A DNA stretch of 64,000 bases, from the IMG/VR virus record IMGVR_UViG_3300045988_071280; one strand, 5' to 3'. Positions 30,761-60,194 of this stretch are shown here, in pieces (the first letter of the stretch is position 1; the number at the start of each line of letters is the position of its first letter). The stretch is from a virus. A program made the translations under genes and the position numbers. The notes beneath the pieces were generated by a model. The model saw only the letters and a list, made by a program, of their open reading frames with translations. It was not told the origin of the DNA and made no database searches.

Positions 30761-32127
30761 CACTATTTATACTTTATATTACTATAAAGATTAGACTATA
30801 TCTTTAACTTATCATTAATTTAAATACTTAAATAAATATCCTTTACAAGTTTTTCCTCTTCCTTTTAAAACTCTTCCACAACCTGGATATTGCTTACTAC
30901 ATTCTCCTACAGTTTTAAAAGTTTCTAATAATTCTCCATCTAAAGAATATCTTCCGACCATTCTTCCGGTATGAAGATACTTAGAAGATTCTTTATTTGG
31001 CATGGCTGGAATTTTTTCTATACTCCATTGATAACCTTGCCAAGTTCTATTTAATTTAATTGCACTACTAATACCCTTTTTTCCTAAAGCTCTTTCAGCT
31101 TCTGCAAAAGAACTATATTCATTTAAATATTCCCCAGAAAGGGAATATTGATATACAGGAGTATTTTTTAATTGCTTACATTTAGCTCTAGAATAATTAC
31201 CTTCTAATTCGTAAGATACATATTTATTATTTATCAAATATCCAGCTTTTATTGCTCTAATAACATTTCCTGTTGCAGAATTTAATTCTTTAGCAGCATC
31301 AGTTATAGATTGATAAAATTTTTCATAATTTCCATCTTTATCATATTGATAAACAGGAATTTTATGTTGATCAATAATAAAGTCTTTTGGATTTACTGAT
31401 TTAAATTTTTCAGTTGTCCATAGATATTTAGCACAAGGATGTTTTGTCATTATAGCAATACTTAATGTTGTATAATATCTATCTACAGCTCTTGAAGCAT
31501 CTGCAATAGATTTATATTCATTTATATATTCTCCTTCTAAAGAATATTGATATACAGCTTTAGCATTTACTCCTCTATCTCCCCCATTTCCTCCTAAAGC
31601 AGTGTTATACACATCCTTTCTTTTTAAAAATTCTTCATTAACAATAATTGATTCTAAATAATAAGCATCTTCTTCATTATCAAAAACTTGGATAGTTTTT
31701 CTAATAAAGGCTTTTACTCCATATTTATTAACAGCAGCTTGAAATACTGTTTTACTGAATTTATATGTAGAAGGTTGATTTATAACAACCCCACATCCTA
31801 AATACCCATCAAAAATATCTGGATTTTCGGTTTGATGTACTCCCACATATATTTTTTTATTAATTGTGTTAGTAGTTAGATATACTATATATTTCATATT
31901 TAAATTTTTATAAGTTAATTCCCATTTCCAGATAAAATCTGTACTCCTTGCGGATAGTCGTTGAACGTTCCTTTTGCGTTACTCAAAGAGCCTACTTATC
32001 AAAAGGCTTCGCTGCTGATTGTCTTTAAGTAGCAGATTAAAGATATTCCAGCAATTAAAGAATTTAATTTATCATACTGTTTCCAGTATGCGACCCATGT
32101 TTAACATAGACGTTTGTTAAAAGTCCC
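30761..32127 (-). mobile_element. group I intron (P/Q/R/S family) carrying a GIY-YIG homing endonuclease gene, 1367 nt
   Basis: Core elements: P 32048-32056, Q 32011-32020, R 31955-31966, S 30794-30802. P1 pairs exon GACCU with GGGUC. P2 is CATACTG-GAAA-CAGTATG. The ORF sits between R and S, i.e. in a P8-type position. Confidence 0.8.
30815..31897 (-). CDS. GIY-YIG homing endonuclease with four NUMOD/IENR1-like repeats, 360 aa
   Basis: The N-terminus MKYIVYLTTN...KIYVGVHQT...YLGCG...AVNKYG...FDNEEDAYYLE follows the GIY-(10-11)-YIG pattern. Four ~45-aa repeats of the type VYQYSLxGEYxNEY...A follow. The ORF lies wholly inside the intron. Confidence 0.85.
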   Translation of the reverse strand: MKYIVYLTTNTINKKIYVGVHQTENPDIFDGYLGCGVVINQPSTYKFSKTVFQAAVNKYGVKAFIRKTIQVFDNEEDAYYLESIIVNEEFLKRKDVYNTALGGNGGDRGVNAKAVYQYSLEGEYINEYKSIADASRAVDRYYTTLSIAIMTKHPCAKYLWTTEKFKSVNPKDFIIDQHKIPVYQYDKDGNYEKFYQSITDAAKELNSATGNVIRAIKAGYLINNKYVSYELEGNYSRAKCKQLKNTPVYQYSLSGEYLNEYSSFAEAERALGKKGISSAIKLNRTWQGYQWSIEKIPAMPNKESSKYLHTGRMVGRYSLDGELLETFKTVGECSKQYPGCGRVLKGRGKTCKGYLFKYLN

Positions 32128-37676: not shown

Positions 37677-37991
37677 CTAAGTTTTAGTTCCGAATACTAT
37701 CCAATCTATAGTTTTTGGATCTTTTCCTCCACTATACAATTCTATATATGTCTTTGTTACACCCATAACATTACAAGAATATCCAGCTTCGTTATTTCCC
37801 CGAAATGAACATACAGCAGTTCTTGGTATATAATCTCCTTGTAACGATACTCTAGTTTCAGTATGTCCCTCACATAAAGTACTTCCCATCTCGAATACTA
37901 AAGGACCTAATGTCATAACTACATGACCTGGTCTAGTTATATCATGTTGAGTCTCTAATATATTATCTAATTCCGTTATAAACTCCGCCAT
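37677..37991 (-). CDS. small fibre-associated paralog A, 104 aa
   Basis: Starts MAEFITELDN and ends GGKDPKTIDWIVFG. It belongs to a four-gene tandem paralog set. Confidence 0.5.
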   Translation of the reverse strand: MAEFITELDNILETQHDITRPGHVVMTLGPLVFEMGSTLCEGHTETRVSLQGDYIPRTAVCSFRGNNEAGYSCNVMGVTKTYIELYSGGKDPKTIDWIVFGTKT

Positions 37992-38308
37992 AATTGATTA
38001 TTTACTGATAATCCTATTATTAAAAATGTTACAGTTTTATCATCTTTCCCTCCAAGAGAAAATGTTACTCCTGTAGTATTTAAACTAGATATACTTATAG
38101 CATATCCTTGTTCATCATTATTTTTTAATGAAGCCATTCCGGTAATTATCCCACTAAATCCTTTTAATGGTACAGAAACAACATCATACCCAGGACAAGT
38201 AGTAGTTCCATAAGCGATTCGTAGTCCTTTATAATTTATATATGTAACAGGATCTACCATTTCCACGGAATAGTCCTCTAAATTATCTTCTGTTAAAAAT
38301 TCAGCCAT
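37976..38308 (-). CDS. small fibre-associated paralog B, 110 aa
   Basis: Starts MAEFLTEDNL, contains NNDEQGYAISISSL and ends GGKDDKTVTFLIIG. Confidence 0.5.
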   Translation of the reverse strand: MAEFLTEDNLEDYSVEMVDPVTYINYKGLRIAYGTTTCPGYDVVSVPLKGFSGIITGMASLKNNDEQGYAISISSLNTTGVTFSLGGKDDKTVTFLIIGLSVNNQLWRSL

Positions 38309-38310
38309 AT

Positions 38311-38604
38311 TTAATCACTTTCTCCTATTATTAAATAATAAAATTCTTTAGGATCTTTCCCTCCGAGTATGAAAGTAGCCGAGGTATTAGTATAAGAGGA
38401 TAAATTTACTGTATAACCTGCTTCATTATTATTTTTTAAACAACAGAATACTCCATATACTGATTTAAATCCGGAATAAGTAATTGTTATACCTCTACTA
38501 GTTATAGAAGAATATCCTCCAACCATTCTGAGTCCTAAACCTTCAATCCCTCCAGATCCAGTAGAATCTAAAGCTCTATCGTCTACAGTTAGATATTCTG
38601 CCAT
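38311..38604 (-). CDS. small fibre-associated paralog C, 97 aa
   Basis: Starts MAEYLTVDDR, contains NNNEAGYTVNLSS and ends GGKDPKEFYYLIIG. Confidence 0.5.
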   Translation of the reverse strand: MAEYLTVDDRALDSTGSGGIEGLGLRMVGGYSSITSRGITITYSGFKSVYGVFCCLKNNNEAGYTVNLSSYTNTSATFILGGKDPKEFYYLIIGESD

Positions 38605-38605
38605 A

Positions 38606-38746
38606 TTATATTATTTTAGCTCTTTGTTTTAATCGATGTATATCATCTTCTAAAGATTGGATTTTGTCTTTTATTATATTTAATTCTAAGGAATCTTTTT
38701 TGATAAAGATTCTATGTAAAAATGTTTTAATTTTATTTAATAACAT
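38606..38746 (-). CDS. possible small coiled-coil protein, 46 aa
   Basis: Unlisted ORF MLLNKIKTFLHRIFIKKDSLELNIIKDKIQSLEDDIHRLKQRAKII*. Its stop lies 1 nt before the next ATG. Confidence 0.3.
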   Translation of the reverse strand: MLLNKIKTFLHRIFIKKDSLELNIIKDKIQSLEDDIHRLKQRAKII

Positions 38747-38756
38747 ATTAATTAAA

Positions 38757-39094
38757 TTAATATCCTATAGCTAACCAAAAAAATTCACTTCTGGTATTTA
38801 CTGGAGCAGTTCCTACTAATTCCACTGTTAACGAGGAATTTGTGAAGGATTTAATAGTTAAAACATCTCCTTTAGACCAATAACCATAATAGTTATTAGG
38901 AGTGAGTTGCACCATACAGCATTTAGTAGGAAATGTTTTTGGATATGATACTGTTGCAGTCATACTTCCAGTATTAAAGTTACTAAGTCCTGACTGTATC
39001 AATATCCCCCCCCCTGTAAGGTATCTGCTTTTGTAGGAGCTGTTTTAGAGAATAAGGTATTTAAATTATCTTTGGTTATAAATTCCTTTGCCAT
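38757..39094 (-). CDS. small fibre-associated paralog D, interrupted by a -1 frame change at a G9 tract
   Basis: The ATG at 39094 gives MAKEFITKDNLNTLFSKTAPTKADTLQGGGY*, with the stop at 39001-38999. The rest (ILIQSGLSNF...EFFWLAIGY*, track ORF 38757-39002 with a TTG pseudo-start) is in the -1 frame. One extra G, or a -1 slip on the G9 run, joins the two parts. Confidence 0.6.
39006..39014 (-). repeat. homopolymeric G9 tract (C9 on plus strand) inside a coding region
   Basis: Counted directly in the text: aatat-ccccccccc-tgtaag. Confidence 0.95.
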
Positions 39095-39124
39095 TTATTA
39101 ATATTTTATTTAATTATTATATAT

Positions 39125-40180
39125 TTATGTTAATTTTTTATATGTATTTCCACTTGTATTTAATTCTGTCCACCATATATCTCCTTTATAATTAATTAGT
39201 TCTGGCTGTATTCCAACATTTCCAAAATTCTTTACTATAGTACCGCTATATATCTCACATAAACAAGGATATTTAAGAGTAGCAGATTGAGATACATTTA
39301 TACACTTATTGCCTCCGTATATTAAGCATCTAACAAAAAATTCAGTCATCGGAGTGTATGATAAAGAAAGACTTGATGTTTGAGAAGAATGATAATCCCA
39401 TGTACTACTAGTCCTTATATAGCTATTATTAGTCTCTGCGTTAGCAAATGTAGCATAATTACCATTAGATTCTTTAGTAAGAACTTGAGAATACATAGTA
39501 GGACTAACATCCGCTCCTTTAGTATAAGAATATGAATCATTAGTCTCATTTACATATAACCTAGCTACACATCTATACGTTCCTCCAACATCAAAATACG
39601 CATAATGATAAGTGCCAACCTTCTCTACAAAAGAAAAAGTTCTCGGATATTTAAAATTACTACCAGTATAAGCAGCTATAGTAGTAAGAGTATTATTAGA
39701 TGTATTTAATTTATATATTCTAAATTGCGTATTAGCATTTGAAGAAGATCCACTACAACAAAATAGATAATTACCTGATAAAGCCGAAGTAGCTATATTA
39801 TACCAATATCCAGTAGAACCACTTAGAGATATAGATGTGGTAACCATTGTACCATTAACCACAACTCCGAAAGTGATATTTTTAAAATCAGAAGCTGCAT
39901 AAACAAATGGAATTCTTTCATCATCAGGATCTGCTACAACACCTATACGACAATAGACACTTCTGGAAGAAAGAAAATCGTTTAGAACCTGCATATTATC
40001 TACTTTCCTATTTACATCGTCATACGCAACGAAATCAGTATTAGCATAGCTAGTAAGTAAATCAGGATCCGCCTTTAATAAAAGAATATTTTGCTTTGAT
40101 ATATATTCAGTACCTCCAGTTACTGGTATACCTTGTAATTTCTCTATTGCCTGGTCAATTGTTATAAATTCCTTACTCAT
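39125..40180 (-). CDS. receptor-binding-like tail protein, 351 aa
   Basis: The N-terminus MSKEFITIDQAIEKLQG...ADPDLLTSY is shared with 36902-37672. The C-terminal part is rich in S/T/Y/N beta-formers. Confidence 0.5.
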   Translation of the reverse strand: MSKEFITIDQAIEKLQGIPVTGGTEYISKQNILLLKADPDLLTSYANTDFVAYDDVNRKVDNMQVLNDFLSSRSVYCRIGVVADPDDERIPFVYAASDFKNITFGVVVNGTMVTTSISLSGSTGYWYNIATSALSGNYLFCCSGSSSNANTQFRIYKLNTSNNTLTTIAAYTGSNFKYPRTFSFVEKVGTYHYAYFDVGGTYRCVARLYVNETNDSYSYTKGADVSPTMYSQVLTKESNGNYATFANAETNNSYIRTSSTWDYHSSQTSSLSLSYTPMTEFFVRCLIYGGNKCINVSQSATLKYPCLCEIYSGTIVKNFGNVGIQPELINYKGDIWWTELNTSGNTYKKLT

Positions 40181-40235
40181 AACAATTCCAATAACGAGAT
40201 TTTATTTTTTAATAATCTATTTAGATTCTTTTCAT

Positions 40236-40244
40236 CCCCCCCCC
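40236..40244 (-). repeat. homopolymeric G9 tract (C9 on plus strand), intergenic, 56 nt upstream of the ATG at 40180
   Basis: Counted directly in the text: ttcat-ccccccccc-tattta. Confidence 0.95.
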
Positions 40245-40277
40245 TATTTATAGAGGATTTTAAAGATATTTTATATA

Positions 40278-42653
40278 TCATATTTTCCATACTTTCTTTA
40301 AATTACTTATTTCTTGTTCTAAATATTTTATTTTTTCCTCAAATTCTTTCTGAGATTTAATTCTTAAATTATATTCCTCTTTTAAAGCCTCTTGAAGAAG
40401 GATTGTATATCTCTCATATGAAAATGTTAAAATAGAATTATTTATTTCTCTTACAAGCTCTGGATAATATTTATTCCAGTATTGAGCTGAGGTTCCTATA
40501 CATAAATCATTCTCGTCCATCCAATTATATTTAAATCCGGGAGAATTTAGTACTAGAGGTAATATATTAGATAAATTCTCTATATTATGTTTATATCTAA
40601 TATCAGATACAGAAGTTGTCCCAGCTCCGTTTGTATGAACAGTATGTTTTGTGAAAGTGATTTCATCAAGACTGTTAATTTTAGCCATTATTGATTCAGG
40701 TGTTTCTCCTGAAGAATTCATTAATGTATCTACATCGGCTCTTAAACTAAGAATATCTTGTTGTAATGGAACTAAATCAGATAGATAAGATATTTCATTA
40801 TCTCCCCATGTAATCCTTCTATTAAAAGTGCTAGGTATATTAAATACATTATTAGTTCCCTCCCCATTTGGAATCCATACTCGAAGATCGGTATCCATAC
40901 CTAATATTGACCAGTTTATTTCTTTTGTAGAAGATGCAGATAATTTAAGCATTCCATTTATCTCACAATCTCCTTTTAATCTTATGTACCTACAATATAC
41001 TTTTTCAGAATAGACTCCGTATATATCAGAACTTAATAAAGTATCAAAATATATAGGATCTCTAATACCTTCTAAACATCCCAATCTTAATCTCGGAGAT
41101 AAGGGTGCGACTTCATCATTTATACCTAAATAAGATTTATCTAAACATTCTCCAGTTTCGGGGTTTGTTTCTCTAATACTATGTAAATACAAAGAATCCC
41201 AATTTCTAAAATATAAAACATCTCCAACTTCCGGAAGTTTTTCTAACTCTCTCTTCCTTTCCTCATCAGTAGTTTCATCTAAATACTCTTCTAAATCCTT
41301 ATCTAAAACATTTTTATCAATAGTAGCAACTATATTACATCCAGAAATTGTAAAAGTATCCTCATCATAAATCCATTCTAATTCTTCAATCTTAATCCTA
41401 CCTTTAGATATTATTTTAGTAGTAGGAATTAAAGTGCTTACATCAATCTCTTCCTCAGAATCTTCTGGTATTTCTACATTATATCCATAAGAATACTTCT
41501 CAAAATATAAATAATCTCCTATTTTTATATTATAAATCCCATTTATAGATATCTCGTATTTAATAGGAATAACTTCCTCTGTTTCTCCTCCAGATTCTTC
41601 TTCATTAGGAACTATTTCAGATATACTAGATACAATTCCTTGTGGTTCAAAGAAATAATTAGTATTTAATCCTTTAGTAATAAAATCCTTCTCTTTAGAT
41701 GAACCATCCCCAAACGGGCCTTTAGCAGAATTTCTCACTATTAAATTATCTACTTCTAAAGTCCATTCGGAATTTATATTCGCTAATCTATATCCAGCCA
41801 TTCCTTCTATGAAATAATCTGATATTATCCCAGAATTAAGAACAGCTTCATCTTTTACATACATATTCCCATCTACTTCAAAATTATAGTTATAAGTTGG
41901 AGGATATCCTATAGATATATAATTCCCATTTATATATGTAATACCTTCTTTAGAATTAAATTTAATACCAGAAGTATTAGTATCTAAAGTTACTCCACTA
42001 TTATTAACTATTATATCTAAATAATCATTCTGATTTTTTATCTGCATCCCATTTGATCCTATTACATTAAAATCTCTAGGTCCATGAAGATTATTTTCTA
42101 AATTAATAGTTACTTTATCCTTAACTATTCCTCCGGAATTAAGACTTAAATATAATTCTACTAAAGTCCCATTATCATTATAATAATGAACTTTATCATC
42201 TGAATTAAAATAAACAAAATCAATAGGTAAAATTGCAGTATTATCTTGATTATTAATAATAACTTTTAAATTTCTTTGAGCAGTTCTAATCTGTTCTAGA
42301 GTAAGATCTTGATTATAATTAATAGCTAAATAATCCTCAGAATTCTCTACATCATCTCTTTTAGATAGTACTGGATATAATATTCCATTTATTTGAAAAT
42401 AAATAGCATCTTCCGATTCCACAAAATACCATCCATCCGCAGTTCCTATATCATTTTTATTCTGAACAATATTTATACTCTTATCATTACCATCAGTCTT
42501 AGATATCTTTCCGTTAGAAATAAGATCCAAGAAAGCATTTCCGAATCTAACTTTTACATTACCTTTTCCATTAAGAATTATATCAGTATCAGCAGATCCA
42601 ACCATTAAATATGGCTTTCCTAGAATCTTTTCTACTTTAATAAGTTCTCCCAT
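40278..42653 (-). CDS. tail fibre/spike with C-terminal intramolecular-chaperone (peptidase S74-like) domain, 791 aa
   Basis: The C-terminus has TSVSDIRYKHNIENL...FKYNW...IGTSAQ...FSYERYT followed by a coiled coil, which is the S74 autoproteolytic chaperone signature (SDxRxKxNI). It is homologous to the C-terminus of 45930-52364. Confidence 0.75.
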   Translation of the reverse strand: MGELIKVEKILGKPYLMVGSADTDIILNGKGNVKVRFGNAFLDLISNGKISKTDGNDKSINIVQNKNDIGTADGWYFVESEDAIYFQINGILYPVLSKRDDVENSEDYLAINYNQDLTLEQIRTAQRNLKVIINNQDNTAILPIDFVYFNSDDKVHYYNDNGTLVELYLSLNSGGIVKDKVTINLENNLHGPRDFNVIGSNGMQIKNQNDYLDIIVNNSGVTLDTNTSGIKFNSKEGITYINGNYISIGYPPTYNYNFEVDGNMYVKDEAVLNSGIISDYFIEGMAGYRLANINSEWTLEVDNLIVRNSAKGPFGDGSSKEKDFITKGLNTNYFFEPQGIVSSISEIVPNEEESGGETEEVIPIKYEISINGIYNIKIGDYLYFEKYSYGYNVEIPEDSEEEIDVSTLIPTTKIISKGRIKIEELEWIYDEDTFTISGCNIVATIDKNVLDKDLEEYLDETTDEERKRELEKLPEVGDVLYFRNWDSLYLHSIRETNPETGECLDKSYLGINDEVAPLSPRLRLGCLEGIRDPIYFDTLLSSDIYGVYSEKVYCRYIRLKGDCEINGMLKLSASSTKEINWSILGMDTDLRVWIPNGEGTNNVFNIPSTFNRRITWGDNEISYLSDLVPLQQDILSLRADVDTLMNSSGETPESIMAKINSLDEITFTKHTVHTNGAGTTSVSDIRYKHNIENLSNILPLVLNSPGFKYNWMDENDLCIGTSAQYWNKYYPELVREINNSILTFSYERYTILLQEALKEEYNLRIKSQKEFEEKIKYLEQEISNLKKVWKI

Positions 42654-53171: not shown

Positions 53172-53971
53172 TACTTTCTACAATTACAAGAACTAAATCC
53201 AGTAGAGTATTTAAGGTAATCATTATTACAAAATCCTCCACAAACCTGAATCTCTTCTATAATTCTCTCGGCTTCATAATAACTACATTTATCTATTAAT
53301 CTATGGATTAATTCTAAAGCTATAAATACCATATTCCTATCTCTAAATACTTGAGAAATATTATTATCATTTTTTATATTACATCTAGTATATAATTTAT
53401 TATAATAGATATATTTTAATTTATTCTCGTAACAATATTCTAAATTCCCTAAAAGAAATGTCTCTTCCTCAATCCCTATTATATTAGAATTAGACTGATT
53501 ATTATATAAATCCATTATAGATATCTTCTTTTCAGTATAACTTCCGGATATAATAGTTATTTCATAAATCTCTACTTCTCCATTTGAAAGTTCTTTCGCG
53601 GAATAGAATATTTCTCCTTCCATATTTAAACTAGATGGAGATACTCCATGAACCCATTCGTAATTAGGTAACGCTAAATGATCTATTATATGCCATCCGT
53701 CTATTTTAGTAGAATAGTTTAATTTATAATCAGTATATTCCTGATCTGAATGACATACATAATAAAAATCTGATACTTTAGGATCATCTATAGTATTTAG
53801 AGTAATTAAATCAATAAATACAATATCTTTTGTTCTTAAATAATTAGCGGATATCTGAGATACTTCTGGATAGATACTACTAGTACTTATACCAGTAGTA
53901 TCCTTTAATGTAAATCCAGATATTCCGTATTCAGTTAATGAAATACTTAAATTTAATGAAATATTTTTCAT
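53171..53971 (-). CDS. hypothetical structural-module protein, 266 aa
   Basis: ORF whose start overlaps the portal stop by 4 nt and whose stop overlaps the next start by 1 nt. Confidence 0.45.
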   Translation of the reverse strand: MKNISLNLSISLTEYGISGFTLKDTTGISTSSIYPEVSQISANYLRTKDIVFIDLITLNTIDDPKVSDFYYVCHSDQEYTDYKLNYSTKIDGWHIIDHLALPNYEWVHGVSPSSLNMEGEIFYSAKELSNGEVEIYEITIISGSYTEKKISIMDLYNNQSNSNIIGIEEETFLLGNLEYCYENKLKYIYYNKLYTRCNIKNDNNISQVFRDRNMVFIALELIHRLIDKCSYYEAERIIEEIQVCGGFCNNDYLKYSTGFSSCNCRK

Positions 53972-54999
53972 TTTCCAAAATTTACTTCGTTATTTCTAGG
54001 ATTATTATCAAATAATTGTGCCCATTCAATATTAGCTTTCTTTTCTTCGATCTTATTCCTCTCTTTATCATTCTCATCTTTAGATTTAGCAGTAAACCAT
54101 TTAATAGAGGAATCTTGTTCTTTTTGTTTTAGATTTTCTACTTCTTTAATAGATTTTTGCAATTCCTCTTGAAGTTGCTGTATCTGTTGTTGAGCTTCTT
54201 TAAGAGCTTGATCATATTGCTGTATTTGTTGTTGAGCTTGTTGTATTTGATTATTCTCCTCTTTTTGACGTTTAATTGCATCTAATGTTATTTGTTTATA
54301 TTCTGTGATACTCTTACATCCAATAGCTTGTACTAATACATCAGCTGTTAATTGTCCTGATTTAATTAACTCAAGATTATATGCTTTTATAGTTTCTAAG
54401 TCTTGTAGAGCGGATTGAGTATCAGCAATATTTATATCAAAGTCTGTTACTGTATAATGTTCTGGAAGTGCTGTGAAAATAGCTTTTTGTTTCTCTCCAA
54501 GAATTATAGTTCCTTGAAATCCATCTTTATATACTACTTTAGCTATATTTAAACTATCTAAGAATAATTCTCTTAAAGCTAATGCCATGTTAGAGAAGTA
54601 TATTTTTGTGACAATTAGTGATTGATTAATTCCGGTTCTAACATTAGTAACAGCATCTCTGGTTTCAACTCCTCCAATAGCTTCTCTAAATGCTCCTGTT
54701 ATATTAGATGCAAGTTGCTCTATTTTTTCTATAGCTAGATCTAGAGCTTGCATGGATTGGTAGGATAAACTCATATCATATGTATTAAATACAGCATTTG
54801 GCATAGATTGTCCAGCCTCACTTTGGGAAGTATCTAATGCTGCGAATCCTTGTTTTACATACGCCATGAATTTAAGTAATCTGTTTGTTTCATCTTCCTC
54901 GTCTAAGAATGTGGGGATTTTAGAGAAATCTACTGCAATACCTTTTGTTCCACTTACTGCAATGGCATTATTTCGAAGGAAAAATAGTATATTATACAT
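53968..54999 (-). CDS. portal protein (putative), exon 2 of 2
   Basis: Corresponds to track ORF 53968-55002. An in-frame TAA lies directly upstream of the ATG ATG, so this cannot be a plain continuation of exon 1. The exon starts after the omega-G at 55000 (or at 54997). The C-terminus is a Q-rich coiled coil. Confidence 0.65.
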   Translation of the reverse strand: MYNILFFLRNNAIAVSGTKGIAVDFSKIPTFLDEEDETNRLLKFMAYVKQGFAALDTSQSEAGQSMPNAVFNTYDMSLSYQSMQALDLAIEKIEQLASNITGAFREAIGGVETRDAVTNVRTGINQSLIVTKIYFSNMALALRELFLDSLNIAKVVYKDGFQGTIILGEKQKAIFTALPEHYTVTDFDINIADTQSALQDLETIKAYNLELIKSGQLTADVLVQAIGCKSITEYKQITLDAIKRQKEENNQIQQAQQQIQQYDQALKEAQQQIQQLQEELQKSIKEVENLKQKEQDSSIKWFTAKSKDENDKERNKIEEKKANIEWAQLFDNNPRNNEVNFGK

Positions 55000-56116
55000 C
55001 ATTTATGTTCAATGTGGTTCGTTACTCCACATCCGGGAATTTACCCAGCTATATGTTTCCATATAGATCAGACTATATCATACATAATTGATCTAGTATA
55101 AGGTCTAAAAGATTTTTAGAAAAACATTCAGTTGATGTTTCATGTTCCCAATGTTTAGGCAAATATAAATTATTTTTAATTAGTCTTTTTAATTTAGTTT
55201 CTAATGTTTTACAATCTATAGGATTTTCAAAAGAAATAGTTTTAATTACTTCTATTTCATAGCCAAGATTTTTATACTCTTTAAATCTTCTAATTTGTCC
55301 GTTTTCTAAAGTATAAGATATTCCCAATTTATAAAAACTTTCTTCTTCATTATATAATCGTATAAGATAAAATGTATCACTACATTTCCAGTTTTTACAT
55401 TTTGGACATCCCCTACCCATAAATATATAATCATTATCTATAGATACTTCTCCATGTTCTGGACATATTAAAATAGATTTACCTCCGTGTCTACTAGTTT
55501 CAGTAATTTTAAAATCATACTTGTCTCCATAAATAAATTTAAGTTGATTGTAAAAATACTGTTTTCTATCAACCGCTGCCTCAATCGTAGGCATAAATCC
55601 TTTAGATATCAAATTTCCAGGAGTTACAGAAACTAAGCCAAATTGTGTTTCAAACAGCATTTTTGAGTTCATTCCACTATATTCAGATGCAGGCTTTATA
55701 TTATTATATATATGCTCTTGTTTTTCTTTCAATAGATTCATGAAATATTCAGTTTTGTTTATGGCTGCCTTTATTCCAGGAGTATAAAGTAAAACTTGTT
55801 TTGCTGTATTAAACGACATTACTCCATATTTGTCCTTTACTAAAATTGGTTTAGAAAGTCCTTTAAACCTACTTACCACTTCGATATCTTTATTATATAA
55901 AGACTCTACTTCCTTTTTAAATTGTTCTTCTGTGTACTTCATTCTTTTTCAAATTACTTATTAAATTATGTTTCCGTGCTTCGAACTCACTTGAGTCCTA
56001 TAATTAGTCGTTGAACCTTCCTTTAAAATATTTAAAGGCTTGGCTGCTGATTAGCATAGATAAATTATCTTTAGCTTCCCAGCAATTCTCGGAATTTACC
56101 CAGGACCTGTATATTA
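55000..56116 (-). mobile_element. group I intron (P/Q/R/S family) carrying a T5orf172/GIY-YIG-like endonuclease gene, ~1117 nt
   Basis: Core elements: P 56079-56087, Q 56043-56052, R 56005-56016, S 55071-55079. P1 pairs exon CAGGAU with GUCCUG and has a terminal U.G. The ORF stop TAA at 56116-56114 is the first intron triplet. Confidence 0.8.
55073..55942 (-). CDS. intron-encoded putative homing endonuclease, T5orf172 (GIY-YIG superfamily)-like C-terminal domain plus zinc knuckle, 289 aa
   Basis: The segment CPEHG...CPKC is followed by FYLIRLYNEEESFYKLGIS...R...E...TECF, which resembles the T5orf172 pattern. The ORF lies between R and S of the intron. The N-terminal half contains two related ~50-aa repeats. 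Confidence 0.55.
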   Translation of the reverse strand: MKYTEEQFKKEVESLYNKDIEVVSRFKGLSKPILVKDKYGVMSFNTAKQVLLYTPGIKAAINKTEYFMNLLKEKQEHIYNNIKPASEYSGMNSKMLFETQFGLVSVTPGNLISKGFMPTIEAAVDRKQYFYNQLKFIYGDKYDFKITETSRHGGKSILICPEHGEVSIDNDYIFMGRGCPKCKNWKCSDTFYLIRLYNEEESFYKLGISYTLENGQIRRFKEYKNLGYEIEVIKTISFENPIDCKTLETKLKRLIKNNLYLPKHWEHETSTECFSKNLLDLILDQLCMI

Positions 56117-57322
56117 ATCCTGTAAATCTGCTGTAGCTAATACTAAACTAAACGGGATATTTTGTCTCGTTGTCATAAATAACCCATTAACAGATAATGT
56201 ACATTCCTTAGGATTATCCATAGATCTAACTACATTTAAATCTACATCCCTAACAATATAAATATCACTAGCAATTTTAACTACAGAGTATCTATGCATT
56301 ACACCATCTTTTCCTGTCTCTATATATTCTACCTCATATACAGTAATTAATCTATTATTATATCCATACATTCCAGTATTCCCATCCCAAACAGGAGTTA
56401 CCTCTAGTCCCCCTAATATTCCGGTAGCAAATTCCGAATCCTCTGTAGTAGCAGCATTTATTGGTCCGGTAGATCTTATTATATACTTCTGATTATCAGT
56501 ATAATATGCCTTCTCTAATTCATCTCTTAACTTAGTTTTATCAGCTTCTGTTAATTCTGAATTATATTTAGATAGGATCTGATCTACTGTCATGTAATAT
56601 CTACAAACAGCTCTAGGAGATTTATTTAAATAATAACTATTAGGATTTTTCTCCACAAAAGTATTAATAGGATTTAATCCTTCTATATCCACATTATTCC
56701 CACTTCTAGAAGGTTGTGTTTTAAAATAAAGTGTTCCGGAGATTAATAAATCCGTCATTAATAATCTAGCTTTTATATCTAAATCAATACTTTTAGATTG
56801 AGATAAATATGTTATAATATTCTGTGCTGCTATTTCATATTCAGAAATAAAATTTTTATCTATATCTTCTTTTAATAACTGTAGAGACTTTTCAGTTAGA
56901 GGATCTTTTGTTATAGGAGTATTCTGATCTCCGAATTTAGAGAGAATAGTATTATATAAATTACTCATATATAATTCCCTAACTCCATCTAATACTTTAA
57001 GCTGTCTCTCTCTATTTATTAAAGATAATGTCTTTTGATCTTTACATGTAATTTGCATATTTAATGGAGCATCTAGAAACTTCCCAACTAAATAATCTAT
57101 GTGCTTTTTTATAAGTGGTATAAATTGTATTTGTGTCGGAGTTCCTATTCCATAATTTTCTTCGAAATGCTTATATTGATCTAAATCCATCTTCCCGTGA
57201 TAGTAGTTATAAGCTTTTCTTATTGCTACTTTATCATATACGAGATCAGAAATAGCTTGGTTGGCCTTCTGAATTTGATAGTCTTTTGATCCTCGTTTGT
57301 ACTCGACGCTCATCCAAATCAA
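56117..57322 (-). CDS. portal protein (putative), exon 1 of 2
   Basis: 402 codons ending ...LATADLQD, exactly at the predicted U.G splice site. The gene is adjacent to terL. The spliced product would be 745 aa. An alternative start is Met at 57313. Confidence 0.65.
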
Positions 57323-57772: not shown

Positions 57773-58041
57773 CATATTTGTTATCTATAAGGCTTTTTAT
57801 CCTTATATTCTTATAATTTCTTATAAGTTCAGCATATATTTTCATCTTATATTTAAATAAGATGTTCCGCACTCGTGGAAGGATTATTACTCTCATTAAC
57901 GTTCACCTTCTATGCGTTACAATGGCTAACGATGTTTTAGCTTATCTCGGTATTAGCATGGTATTTAAACTTTAACTTTCACCGATTTTGCGGAATTATT
58001 TTATTACCTTAAATTTCTTTAAGGAGGGACATGTAAGGTTT
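57773..58041 (-). mobile_element. group I intron (terL family), ORF-less, 269 nt
   Basis: P1 pairs exon GGGGAU with GUCCCU and carries a U.G. P2 is CCTTAAA-GAAA-TTTAAGG. P3 is TTCCGCA/TGCGGAA. The 3' end is GATAACAAATATG followed by the exon. It is homologous to the other two terL introns. Confidence 0.7.
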
Positions 58042-59060
58042 ATCCCCATCGCAGCGATAATATCAAACTTCCTCTTATTCTCATAAGAATAATCTTTTAA
58101 TTCATTTAACATCTCCACAGAATCAATTTTATCCCAAAATTCATTAACATAATCCTGAATAAGTTCAAGATAATACTCAATAACTCTTTTTGAGGGATAA
58201 ATACCATACATACTAGAATTTAAAGATTTCTTCTTAGATACATCTGTACTATTCGGAGATTGTAATTTTTTCATTAATAAATATTGTTTTCCTTTATCCT
58301 GAAAATAACTTACAATAGCTGTTCTGGAACTTTCTAATACTGCTTTTGCTCCATACCATTCTAATAATAGAATTGTCTGATTATAAGCCGTTCTAATATT
58401 CTCGGGTCTATCTTTATATATAGCTACATATTTATTCCCATCAAGTCCATAATTTCTCTTCTTTATAACTAAACAGAAATCAGATGTATCCTTCTGTCCA
58501 GTAGATTGATCAATACCTTGGTCAATAGAGTCAATTCCAGCAACATAAAGATTAGGTATTAAATCTCCATTCTCATCTCTTATAGGCTCTTCAAATATTT
58601 TAACTTTACCATTAGGAGAAGAGATGAATTTAATATTATCTCTACCTCCATCTGTAGCTAAAGCAAGTATACCAATTTTTGGTTTTATTCCGTAGCCATG
58701 AACTTCTATATCTGTTAATCTTTGTGCAATTAAATTCTGATTGAACATATTATCTCCTTTCCTAGATAAAGCTTCTTGGAAAGTCCAACAATACTCTGCA
58801 CAATGTACCATATAAGCAAAGGGATCATTAGAGTATCTTTGACGTTCAATCATTAAAAATTCTTCTGCTTTCTTACGTATTGTAACTCCTCGATTATCTA
58901 TTATCCCAGGTTGCATTACTATAGCGGTAGACGGGATAAAGTATGCTGTATAGACTGTACGATTATCTGAGGAGTGATTATGTTTATATGGTAAGATTCC
59001 GAAGGAAATTGGATCAAGAAACATTCGTTCTAGTCCTTCTAAGGATGGACCGCTATCTCC
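58042..59060 (-). CDS. terL: terminase large subunit, exon 3 of 4 (nuclease domain)
   Basis: Corresponds to track ORF 57996-59063, which needs a GTG pseudo-start. It contains RNase H-like nuclease motifs YVAGIDSIDQG, TSDFCLVI and FDIIAAMG. The exon is 1019 nt and ends in phase 2. The ORF tail INLTCPSLKKFKVIK* is intron read-through. Confidence 0.8.
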
Positions 59061-60194
59061 CACTTTGTTATCTCTAGAGCTTTTTATCTCTAGATTCTTA
59101 CACTTCTTAATTTATGTAAGGTCAGCATATATTTTCATCTGTTCTAGATGTCGAACACTCGTGGTAGGATTATATTTATTCACCTACTATGCGTTACAGT
59201 ATCAATTAACCTTTCGTAATTTAATTGATTACCTCGGGATTAGCATCACAGCTTTCCCCGATTTTGCTCGATTTTCTCAATGAAGATTCCTCTTCAAGCC
59301 GGCAAAATTCTTCGTAAATTTTATATTTTCTTTCTAAGTAAATAGTAGAATCTTTATATAACATTCTAGCTACTTTTCTAGCTTTATAATTACTATAACT
59401 AATTTTATATGCTTTATTATTTTGTTTAGGACAAACTTTAGTATATTCTCCTAAAAACTCTACTATACGTTGTAAGAAATCTTTAGTTCCAACAAATCCT
59501 AAATTTTCCCTAACTTTATTAGTATTATTTACAGGGTAAATTCCAAGAGTCCCATCTCCATCAAGATAACCTCTAATAAAATCATATATAAGAGATTTAG
59601 TTTTAAAAATAGAAGTATCTGGAAAAACTAAAGTAAGAGATTTTCTAGGAGTACATCCTTTAGAATTTAATGCTTCCCATATATGTTTGTTTCTAACAGA
59701 AAATCTACATACATCATCCTTTCCTTTACCATATTGAGGAGATATTCTTATTTTGTCCTCTGTGTATTCTAAAAACTCTTGAAATTTTTTTAAGTGTTTC
59801 CAGTCTTTGGCAGCTAAATTAATTTCTAATTTATATTCTTTAGATCCTATATTTCCATCTGCATATAAAAATCCTAGCCAGTATGCCTTTTCCTCAGTAT
59901 CTATAGTATCAAATACTGTTTCATTAATTCTACATCTATTTTGAGCATTTATGACTTCTATACCTCTCTTTTTTAAATGTCTAGAAATTAATCTTCTATC
60001 AAGACCGTATTTTTCACCTAATTTTGTTAAGCTTCTAGAATTTTCTGGAGTTTCCAAATATTCATTTATAGCATTTTCTAGTAGTAATTGTTTTTGTTCA
60101 CTTAGCATATATATTACATTTTATAATTAAACATTATTTATTACAAATGTAATATAAAATATTAATATTTACAAGTGGAGAAAAATATATCTTT
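59061..60194 (-). mobile_element. group I intron (terL family) carrying a LAGLIDADG homing endonuclease gene, 1134 nt
   Basis: P1 pairs exon CCGGU with GCCGG, which lies downstream of most of the ORF. P2 is TGAAGA-GGAA-TCTTCA. P3 is TCGAGC/GTTCGA. P4 is TCGGG/CCCGA. The omega-G is at 59061. Confidence 0.75.
59221..60108 (-). CDS. double-motif LAGLIDADG homing endonuclease with N-terminal HTH, 295 aa
   Basis: Motif 1 is YWLGFLYADGNIG and motif 2 is FIRGYLDGDGTLG. The N-terminus has an HTH-like segment LTKLGEKYGLDRRLISRHLKKRG. The ORF is not in frame with the terL exons. Confidence 0.9.
   Translation of the reverse strand: MLSEQKQLLLENAINEYLETPENSRSLTKLGEKYGLDRRLISRHLKKRGIEVINAQNRCRINETVFDTIDTEEKAYWLGFLYADGNIGSKEYKLEINLAAKDWKHLKKFQEFLEYTEDKIRISPQYGKGKDDVCRFSVRNKHIWEALNSKGCTPRKSLTLVFPDTSIFKTKSLIYDFIRGYLDGDGTLGIYPVNNTNKVRENLGFVGTKDFLQRIVEFLGEYTKVCPKQNNKAYKISYSNYKARKVARMLYKDSTIYLERKYKIYEEFCRLEEESSLRKSSKIGESCDANPEVIN

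Follow-up and report, generated by a model that had tools for sequence, protein, structure and literature searches.

Tracts of G7-11 are described in the receptor-binding protein genes of the Fletchervirus Campylobacter phages, in which phenotypic subpopulations are formed (Sørensen et al. 2021, Cell Rep 35:109214, as reported in bioRxiv 10.1101/2025.10.21.683753). In the phages T2 and T4, contingency loci have been described in which homopolymers within ORFs undergo reversible frameshifts by polymerase slippage, and this is read as bet-hedging (Gomez, Barrick and Waters, bioRxiv 10.1101/2025.10.21.683753). The T2/T4 loci are mostly short runs (at least 6 nt) in genes such as agt and rIIA, and in coliphage tail fibres the homopolymer repeats are under-represented, at 0.77 times expectation (bioRxiv 10.1101/2025.10.21.683753). 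The polyG/polyC contingency genes of bacteria, which concern surface structures in Campylobacter, Neisseria and Haemophilus, have an intragenic run near the 5' end of the ORF and are switched ON and OFF by slipped-strand mispairing, G9 being typically 'on' and G10 'off'. Another known arrangement is the -1 frameshift of the lambda G/GT tail-assembly chaperone, where a slippery run in a tail-region gene makes two products possible from one start. The class of length-switching mechanisms is established, and the locus described here, a G9 run (tract A) in the fibre cluster of a virus genome (IMG/VR record IMGVR_UViG_3300045988_071280; the analysed stretch of 64,000 nucleotides is referred to as the window), most likely adds a crAss-like gut phage lineage to it.

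When compared with Fletchervirus, as far as the cited account describes that system, the locus is similar in having a G run of about 7-11 in a tail or receptor-binding gene (the receptor-binding assignment being suggested here by the domain), in having several tracts in the host-recognition region of an AT-rich genome, and in the variation of the tract length, which in those lytic phages gives ON and OFF subpopulations and here is seen as ON and OFF alleles among consensus assemblies. Unlike Fletchervirus, the lineage of the window is an unrelated one (its terminase is about 25% identical to those of Crassvirales) from human-gut metagenomes; tract A is at the junction of a leader and a domain, where a Gly2-4 linker encoded by it is tolerated; deletions that fuse genes occur, in addition, between pairs of tracts; and the system is known from sequences alone. 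No BLAST-level homolog is found in Campylobacter phages by blastn and tblastn searches of 50,697 GenBank phage records, so that the relationship is one of mechanism and not of descent. Unlike in T2/T4, the only long G runs of the 64-kb window are concentrated in the fibre-tip cluster. The intragenic run near the 5' end of the ORF is shared with the bacterial contingency genes, but tract A is viral and replicated by the phage's own machinery, and the switched product is a putative virion tip protein and not a cell-surface modifying enzyme. The slippery run in a tail-region gene is shared with lambda G/GT, but tract A is not conserved in length or phase, many alleles are in frame and a stimulatory structure is lacking. 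Distinctive for this locus are the linker position at a domain junction, the several tracts per cluster and the deletions and fusions between tracts. In the literature searches made, no report of poly-G tracts in crAss-like or gut phages was found, which is absence of evidence only.

Tract A is exactly G9 on the minus strand (39006..39014; C9 on the plus strand). The initial annotation, made from the window alone, had read the minus strand as a short ORF interrupted at this run, and this reading is correct: the ATG at 39094 opens a 31-aa ORF (38999..39094, minus strand), MAKEFITKDNLNTLFSKTAPTKADTLQGGGY followed by a stop codon, which is the product of the G9 (OFF) state. The leader (39015..39094, minus strand; MAKEFITKDNL…TLQ) begins with this ATG and has 26 codons (MAKEFITKDNLNTLFSKTAPTKADTL) plus the CA of a Gln codon, which is completed by the first G of tract A. 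The body (38757..39005, minus strand; ILIQSGLSNF…EFFWLAIGY) has 82 codons and a stop codon and in the window needs one more G. The 81-aa ORF that had been noted downstream (38757..39002), with its TTG pseudo-start and its end …EFFWLAIGY, is present as described, and its frame is regained by one added G, being in frame at G10, G7 or G13. The proposal that a tenth G would restore a full-length paralog is also borne out, as the addition of one G gives a 112-aa protein and such an in-frame product exists in relatives (locus L002; cluster P0002 and about 60 others). In these relatives the predicted fusion, …TLQGGGILIQSGLSNF…, is found as a real in-frame protein of 112 aa, of which the junction-spanning peptide is …ADTLQGGGILIQSGL…. 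The uninterrupted G9 homopolymer encodes, when in frame, the Gly2-4 linker, and a locked-ON form of tract A would be GGAGGTGGA. Tract A is most likely a hypermutable switch, as judged from the comparisons described below.

The 81-aa ORF is opened by the TTG at 39002..39000, with which the TGA stop codon of the 31-aa ORF overlaps; in the state that needs one more G, either TTG or ATG is found at this position. Such a codon directly after tract A makes expression of a leaderless body conceivable, by re-initiation in this state, and OFF may not be equal to null. Near the 3' end of the split gene there is a T7 run (38777..38783, minus strand; encoding …EFFW…), which is T8 in two of 11 relatives with identical flanks, and the T8 variant changes the last six residues of the gene. 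Similarly, the T6 run at the start of the 256-aa gene of the cluster is T7 in one of 14 relatives. These variants of the T runs could be either background homopolymer instability or assembly error.

The split gene belongs to a cluster of minus-strand genes, in the order 791-aa fibre, 37-aa ORF, 351-aa gene, split gene, 46-aa ORF, three genes of 97, 110 and 104 aa, and 256-aa gene. The cluster is headed by the 791-aa tail fibre (40278..42653), with a C-terminal Peptidase_S74 intramolecular chaperone domain. Residues 29-112 of the 112-aa product match the complete Pfam domain PF21882 (Gp53-like_C; profile positions 4-84 of 84, E 8.4e-13), with 49.1 bits as compared with a curated gathering cut-off of 24.9. 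The Pfam description of this domain is 'putative tail fiber protein gp53-like, C-terminal'. The domain starts immediately after tract A, which is on the domain boundary, and PF21882 is also recorded (precomputed) on 99 of 102 homolog clusters. The body also matches the C-termini of PHROG tail-fibre and virion-protein families. The virion role of the 112-aa protein is suggested by the name of its domain, and it may have a receptor-binding function. A PDB sequence search gives no significant match (the best ones, subtilisin at E 0.06, are noise), and the AlphaFold model of the fused protein, made with an alignment of 25 sequences, has a pLDDT of 48 and is too poor to use.

The motif M-A/S-(K)-E-F-I/L-T is at the start of six consecutive genes of the fibre cluster, including the split gene, in keeping with the N-terminal likeness to the small neighbouring genes that had been pointed out earlier. 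The three small paralogs of 97, 110 and 104 aa (37677..38604, minus strand) have this common N-terminal motif and a similar …GGKD…IIG C-terminus. In a profile-profile comparison (hhalign), the 112-aa family aligns nearly over its full length with these three neighbours (probability 82%, E 1e-5), which supports that they are distant homologs. Together with the PF21882 match, this also supports the label of fibre paralog given to the gene in the initial annotation. The architecture, as read from the sequences, is a short shared leader, then the poly-G run encoding a Gly linker, and then a predicted tip domain.

The window has 29% GC and 71% A+T, and in 64 kb only two G or C runs longer than 5 nt are present, which are tract A and a second G9 run on the same strand (40236..40244). 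In dinucleotide-preserving shuffles 0.06 G9 matches are expected per window as compared with the two observed, and two are reached in only 2 of 100 shuffles. The suggestion that a G9 run is very unlikely by chance in such DNA is in agreement with these numbers. The longest A or T run in the window is 8 nt (one A8 and one T8), and the two G9 runs are thus the longest homopolymers in the window. GGG accounts for 9.7% of the Gly codons in the window, and GGG-GGG is used in none of the 69 Gly-Gly codon pairs of its long ORFs. Tract A is uninterrupted in every relative, though the adjacent synonymous sites vary (CAA/CAG and ATA/ATG/TTG), and this pure-G state is kept across protein identities of 69-96%. 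Tract A appears to be kept by selection, beyond what the amino acids alone would need. As expected of a homopolymer contingency locus, an uninterrupted mononucleotide run of at least 7 nt (here G9) is found within the reconstructed gene (38757..39094).

The only GenBank phage among the 50,697 records that shares the DNA of the split gene (blastn and tblastn) is Dulem virus 41, a 92.9-kb genome from lemur faeces, which has G12 at the same site, is annotated there with two CDS and, like the window, needs one more G. A larger sample was obtained by body-anchored searches of IMG/VR and JGI/ENA metagenome contigs, which gave 38 unique loci with a readable leader; this sample is considered unbiased and consists mostly of Illumina data, being SPAdes assemblies of independent human-gut samples. 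In the 38 loci tract A ranges from G5 to G12, with 13 loci being ON, 15 being OFF and needing the loss of one G, and 10 being OFF and needing the addition of one G. In the CAA context, which is in frame at n = 9, the lengths are G7 (one locus), G8 (two), G9 (nine, ON) and G10 (four); in the CA context, which is in frame at n = 10, they are G5 (two loci), G8 (five), G9 (seven), G10 (four, ON), G11 (two) and G12 (one). The ON share of 13/38 is close to the expectation for random lengths, with no sign that ON is favoured in the sampled populations. In a search of 5.8 billion proteins, the majority of the split-gene clusters is full length (about 62 clusters of 110-113 aa, with GG, GGG or GGGG linkers), next to shorter products, with about 17 clusters at 81/82 aa (fragments) and about 10 at 100-101 aa.

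Close relatives also differ in tract length, and with it the reading frame is gained or lost, the remainder of the gene being intact. In the closest relative of the window, L068 (97.5% identity over 6.2 kb), the tract is G10 and the 112-aa gene is intact; in another one, L069 (95% identity), G7 gives an in-frame gene of 111 aa. Within this clade G9 is found in the window and in two other loci (L011 and L037), G8 in L038 (OFF), and G7 and G10 in the ON alleles. Among the first 23 loci the closest genome pair is about 1% diverged, and the comparison of near-identical genomes was instead made with contigs having an identical body protein. In these contigs, which are 55-95 kb long and come from different samples, G9 is found in some and G11 in others, with 0-2 mismatches in 660 flanking nucleotides.

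It has to be considered that these differences are technical, as proposed in the initial annotation for the G9 of the window: the true sequence would be G10, the gene would be intact and the variation among the relatives would be noise. Long G runs are difficult for the Illumina chemistry, some contigs have low coverage (1.5-6), the closest relative has G10, and a few A/T runs also differ by one nucleotide among relatives. In addition, four contigs (L016, L019, L024 and L047) end at or within about 40 nt of tract A, which fits either real heterogeneity or poor sequencing of poly-G. The control runs, however, give a different picture: only 4 of the 22 A/T runs of 6-8 nt with shared flanks vary in the same contigs, each by one nucleotide and in a minority of the contigs, whereas all four G tracts vary, with a range of 5-12. 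The overall range of tract lengths among the relatives, G5-G14 (G14 being a fusion junction in L059), also goes beyond differences of one nucleotide, and sequencing error explains neither the G9 and G11 alleles of the near-identical genomes, nor the unbroken run of a rare codon in every relative, nor the deletion junctions between tracts. An error at the G9 of the window itself is possible and would still leave the locus hypervariable; as an explanation of the family-wide pattern it fails, and taken as a whole this explanation is unlikely.

The substitution pattern bears on whether the gene is functional. The dN/dS of the body is 0.165 overall and 0.133 among the OFF-only alleles, and that of the leader is 0.44. 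The body frame is intact in 35 of 37 haplotypes, extra disabling mutations being found in the other two, namely the G5 allele class, which has a second frameshift in the body (L022, L032 and L033), and L039, in which the body is broken. The contracted out-of-frame G5 allele is seen in L022, L032, L033 and L031; this copy is probably truly dead, with a tract that would have shrunk below the hypermutable range. Such broken copies, the out-of-frame state in the window and the outright deletion of the neighbouring gene in some relatives are what would be expected of a plain pseudogene, inactivated by a frameshift and on its way to loss. This is highly improbable, however, given the low dN/dS of the body (0.13-0.17), the ON alleles in relatives that are 95-97.5% identical to the window and the preservation of the pure-G tract in divergent homologs. 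Together with the alleles of the near-identical genomes, the A/T controls and the purity of the tract, the selection data speak for a selected and hypermutable tract with OFF states that would be transient; they speak against both a pseudogene and technical noise.

Purifying selection on the body even in the OFF alleles is also compatible with programmed recoding, in which -1 ribosomal frameshifting on G_GGG_GGG or stuttering of the RNA polymerase would give a fixed ratio of the leader peptide and the full-length protein. Runs of G9-G12 are intrinsically slippery for ribosomes and polymerases, more loci of the CA context have G9 than any other length, and the phase that needs one more G is shared by the window, with G9, and Dulem virus 41, with G12. 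For such a mechanism one length and one phase are expected across the relatives, but all three phases are well represented in the 38 loci and most protein clusters are full length. A stimulatory RNA structure was looked for in the 91 nt downstream of tract A, and none that is stable is found (-15 kcal/mol, z = -0.66 with respect to shuffles); the region spanning tract A folds worse than shuffles. The programmed slippage that the initial annotation had offered next to phase variation is not favoured, in view of the changing phase, the many in-frame alleles and the missing downstream structure; we consider it decidedly unlikely as the main mechanism. A run length of at least 9 is permissive for transcriptional slippage, and ribosomal or RNA-polymerase slippage on G9-G12 may add a leak to the switch. 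Tract A is probably a contingency locus switching by DNA slippage, and the phase-variation proposal of the initial annotation gains strong comparative support from the length polymorphism, the changes between near-identical genomes, the purity of the tract in spite of the codon bias, and the purifying selection in the OFF alleles.

Many database products of this family are gene-caller artefacts of OFF alleles, being the 100-101-aa 'MSYSLNQLLQEQISYKGG…' and the 81/82-aa 'M(L)IQSG…' products (clusters P0064, P0065, P0072, P0074-P0077, P0079, P0080 and P0081-P0097). It was also considered that four alternative leaders occur on one body. This is rejected, as the 'MSYSLNQLLQEQISYK' class is the canonical leader read in a shifted frame from an incidental ATG (AATGTC…); judged from these sequences, this class is a gene-calling artefact of out-of-frame alleles and no recombinant. 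Real deletion fusions are limited to the MENMIYK… and MAGNKEIEV… leaders.

The second G9 run, tract B (40236..40244, minus strand), is 1.2 kb upstream of tract A. It is inside the 37-aa ORF (leader B, MENMIYKISLKSSINRGGDEKNLNRLLKNKISLLELL; 40177..40290, minus strand), which begins MENMIYKISLKSSINRGG…, sits between the fibre gene and the 351-aa gene and overlaps the stop codon of the former and the ATG of the latter. The overlap of its stop codon with the ATG of the 351-aa gene has the form ATGA, and its frame, …SSIN(R/G)GG…DEKNLNRLLK…, is kept in four variants with different tract lengths and inserts (the window, L011, L068 and L069). The 37-aa ORF may be a genuine small gene, or else a phase-variable element for translational coupling to the 351-aa gene. 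A scan of 38500..40500 for promoters and terminators gives no promoter enrichment and no terminators, and an action of tract B through promoter spacing is, in the absence of such enrichment, unsupported. The L002-type genomes have at the place of tract B a 364-aa gene with a poly-G/poly-Gly stretch at codons 26-32 (…GSSIGGGGGG|TEFV…). This stretch also varies in state: some relatives have it ON, with the product of 364 aa, and in others it is OFF, leaving 33 or 38 aa. The 110-aa paralog has a further run, tract C (38048..38053, minus strand), at …FSLGGKDD…; the copy in the window is in frame and, being interrupted (GGAGGG), stable. In relatives tract C is mostly G6, with G7, G8 or G11 in some, which truncates the 110-aa paralog to 60-94 aa. 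The length variation of tract C is recorded for L039, L043, L053 and L037.

Between tracts B and A the window has the 351-aa gene (39125..40180, minus strand), which is Dulem-like with 89% nucleotide identity. In several contigs everything between the two tracts is missing, and leader B is joined to the tip domain via a G run. In L057 and L058 the junction is G12, the fusion is ON with 113 aa and the deleted gene is the 364-aa gene; in L059 the junction is G14, ON with 102 aa, and in L021 it is G9 and OFF, the 351-aa gene being deleted in both. The corresponding proteins are P0063, P0069 and P0070, and the window-type leader B is present in L059, L021, P0063 and P0069. The deletions are recurrent, with loss of the intervening gene of 1.1-1.2 kb, and the fusions have three independent junction lengths in two parental backgrounds. 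The variable and longer junction tracts fit with deletion by misaligned pairing of two G runs.

The window itself is a mosaic. The fibre gene and everything downstream of the 351-aa gene match the L002-type genomes at 92-97%, and the 351-aa gene (39119..40187, compared with L060/L001 and L002) is 89% identical to the Dulem-like lineage of about 93 kb and is absent from the L002-type genomes, which have the 364-aa gene instead. These matches imply that the cassette bearing tract A moves between phage lineages; the fibre cassette would be exchanged between gut phage lineages with unrelated terminases and genomes of about 93 kb and about 160 kb. The terminase fragment of the window shares 24-26% identity with the terminases of Crassvirales and 40% with unclassified human-faecal phages, and Dulem virus 41 is absent from the terminase matches. 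Judged by the terminase identity of about 25%, the phage appears to be crAss-like. The portal matches phrog_6547. No tRNAs are found in the window, and the split gene has no relative in 185,579 bacterial and archaeal genomes; the weak terminase similarity hints at a Bacteroidales-like host.

The portal appears to be encoded in two parts, by an N-terminal ORF at 56114..57322 and, about 1.1 kb away from it, a C-terminal ORF at 53968..55002, both on the minus strand. For the terminase, the ORF (57996..59063, minus strand) covers the C-terminal half of the profile only. Both observations suggest structural genes interrupted by introns, inteins or homing-endonuclease insertions. A 360-aa ORF (30815..31897, minus strand) matches the homing-endonuclease family phrog_314 (E 2.5e-28), which fits with the split portal and terminase genes.

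From these comparisons the following mechanism can be proposed, in which the slippage, the reversibility within a lineage, the virion attachment and the receptor-binding role are all inferred. The polymerase would slip on the G run during phage DNA replication, adding or removing G's. The in-frame lengths (G7, G10 and G13 in the CA context; G6, G9 and G12 in the CAA context) would yield a protein of 110-113 aa, built as leader-Gly(2-4)-tip, which presumably docks on the virion fibre or baseplate via the leader motif common to five neighbouring genes. At the other lengths translation would stop at or just after tract A, so that the phage population would be a mixture of particles with and without the tip protein, as a form of bet-hedging on adsorption or host range. 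The window would have been captured in the OFF state (G9, needing one more G). Recombination or slippage between the tracts, which are in direct orientation, would delete the gene between them and fuse another leader to the tip domain. It is a tentative and rather doubtful extension that the poly-G tracts, beyond ON/OFF switching, are portable joints of a modular system built of a leader, a poly-G Gly linker and a body.

These loci also affect how phage genomes are read. Gene callers split or mis-start such genes, and OFF alleles account for the 'MSYSLNQ…' products and the fragments of 81/82 aa in public data; assemblies break at tract A, and strain-level comparisons will misread such loci as pseudogenes. 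The crAss-like phages are among the most abundant human-gut viruses, and to our knowledge their persistence alongside hosts with phase-variable surfaces is an open question. If the proposed switch is real, the poly-G run at the fibre tip would be a phage bet-hedging counterpart to the phase variation of the host. If the tracts also act as joints, crAss-like phages that are widespread in the human gut would possess a two-tier device for diversifying their host range, with fast and reversible ON/OFF switching and slower deletion and fusion, which would work without diversity-generating retroelements or invertases.
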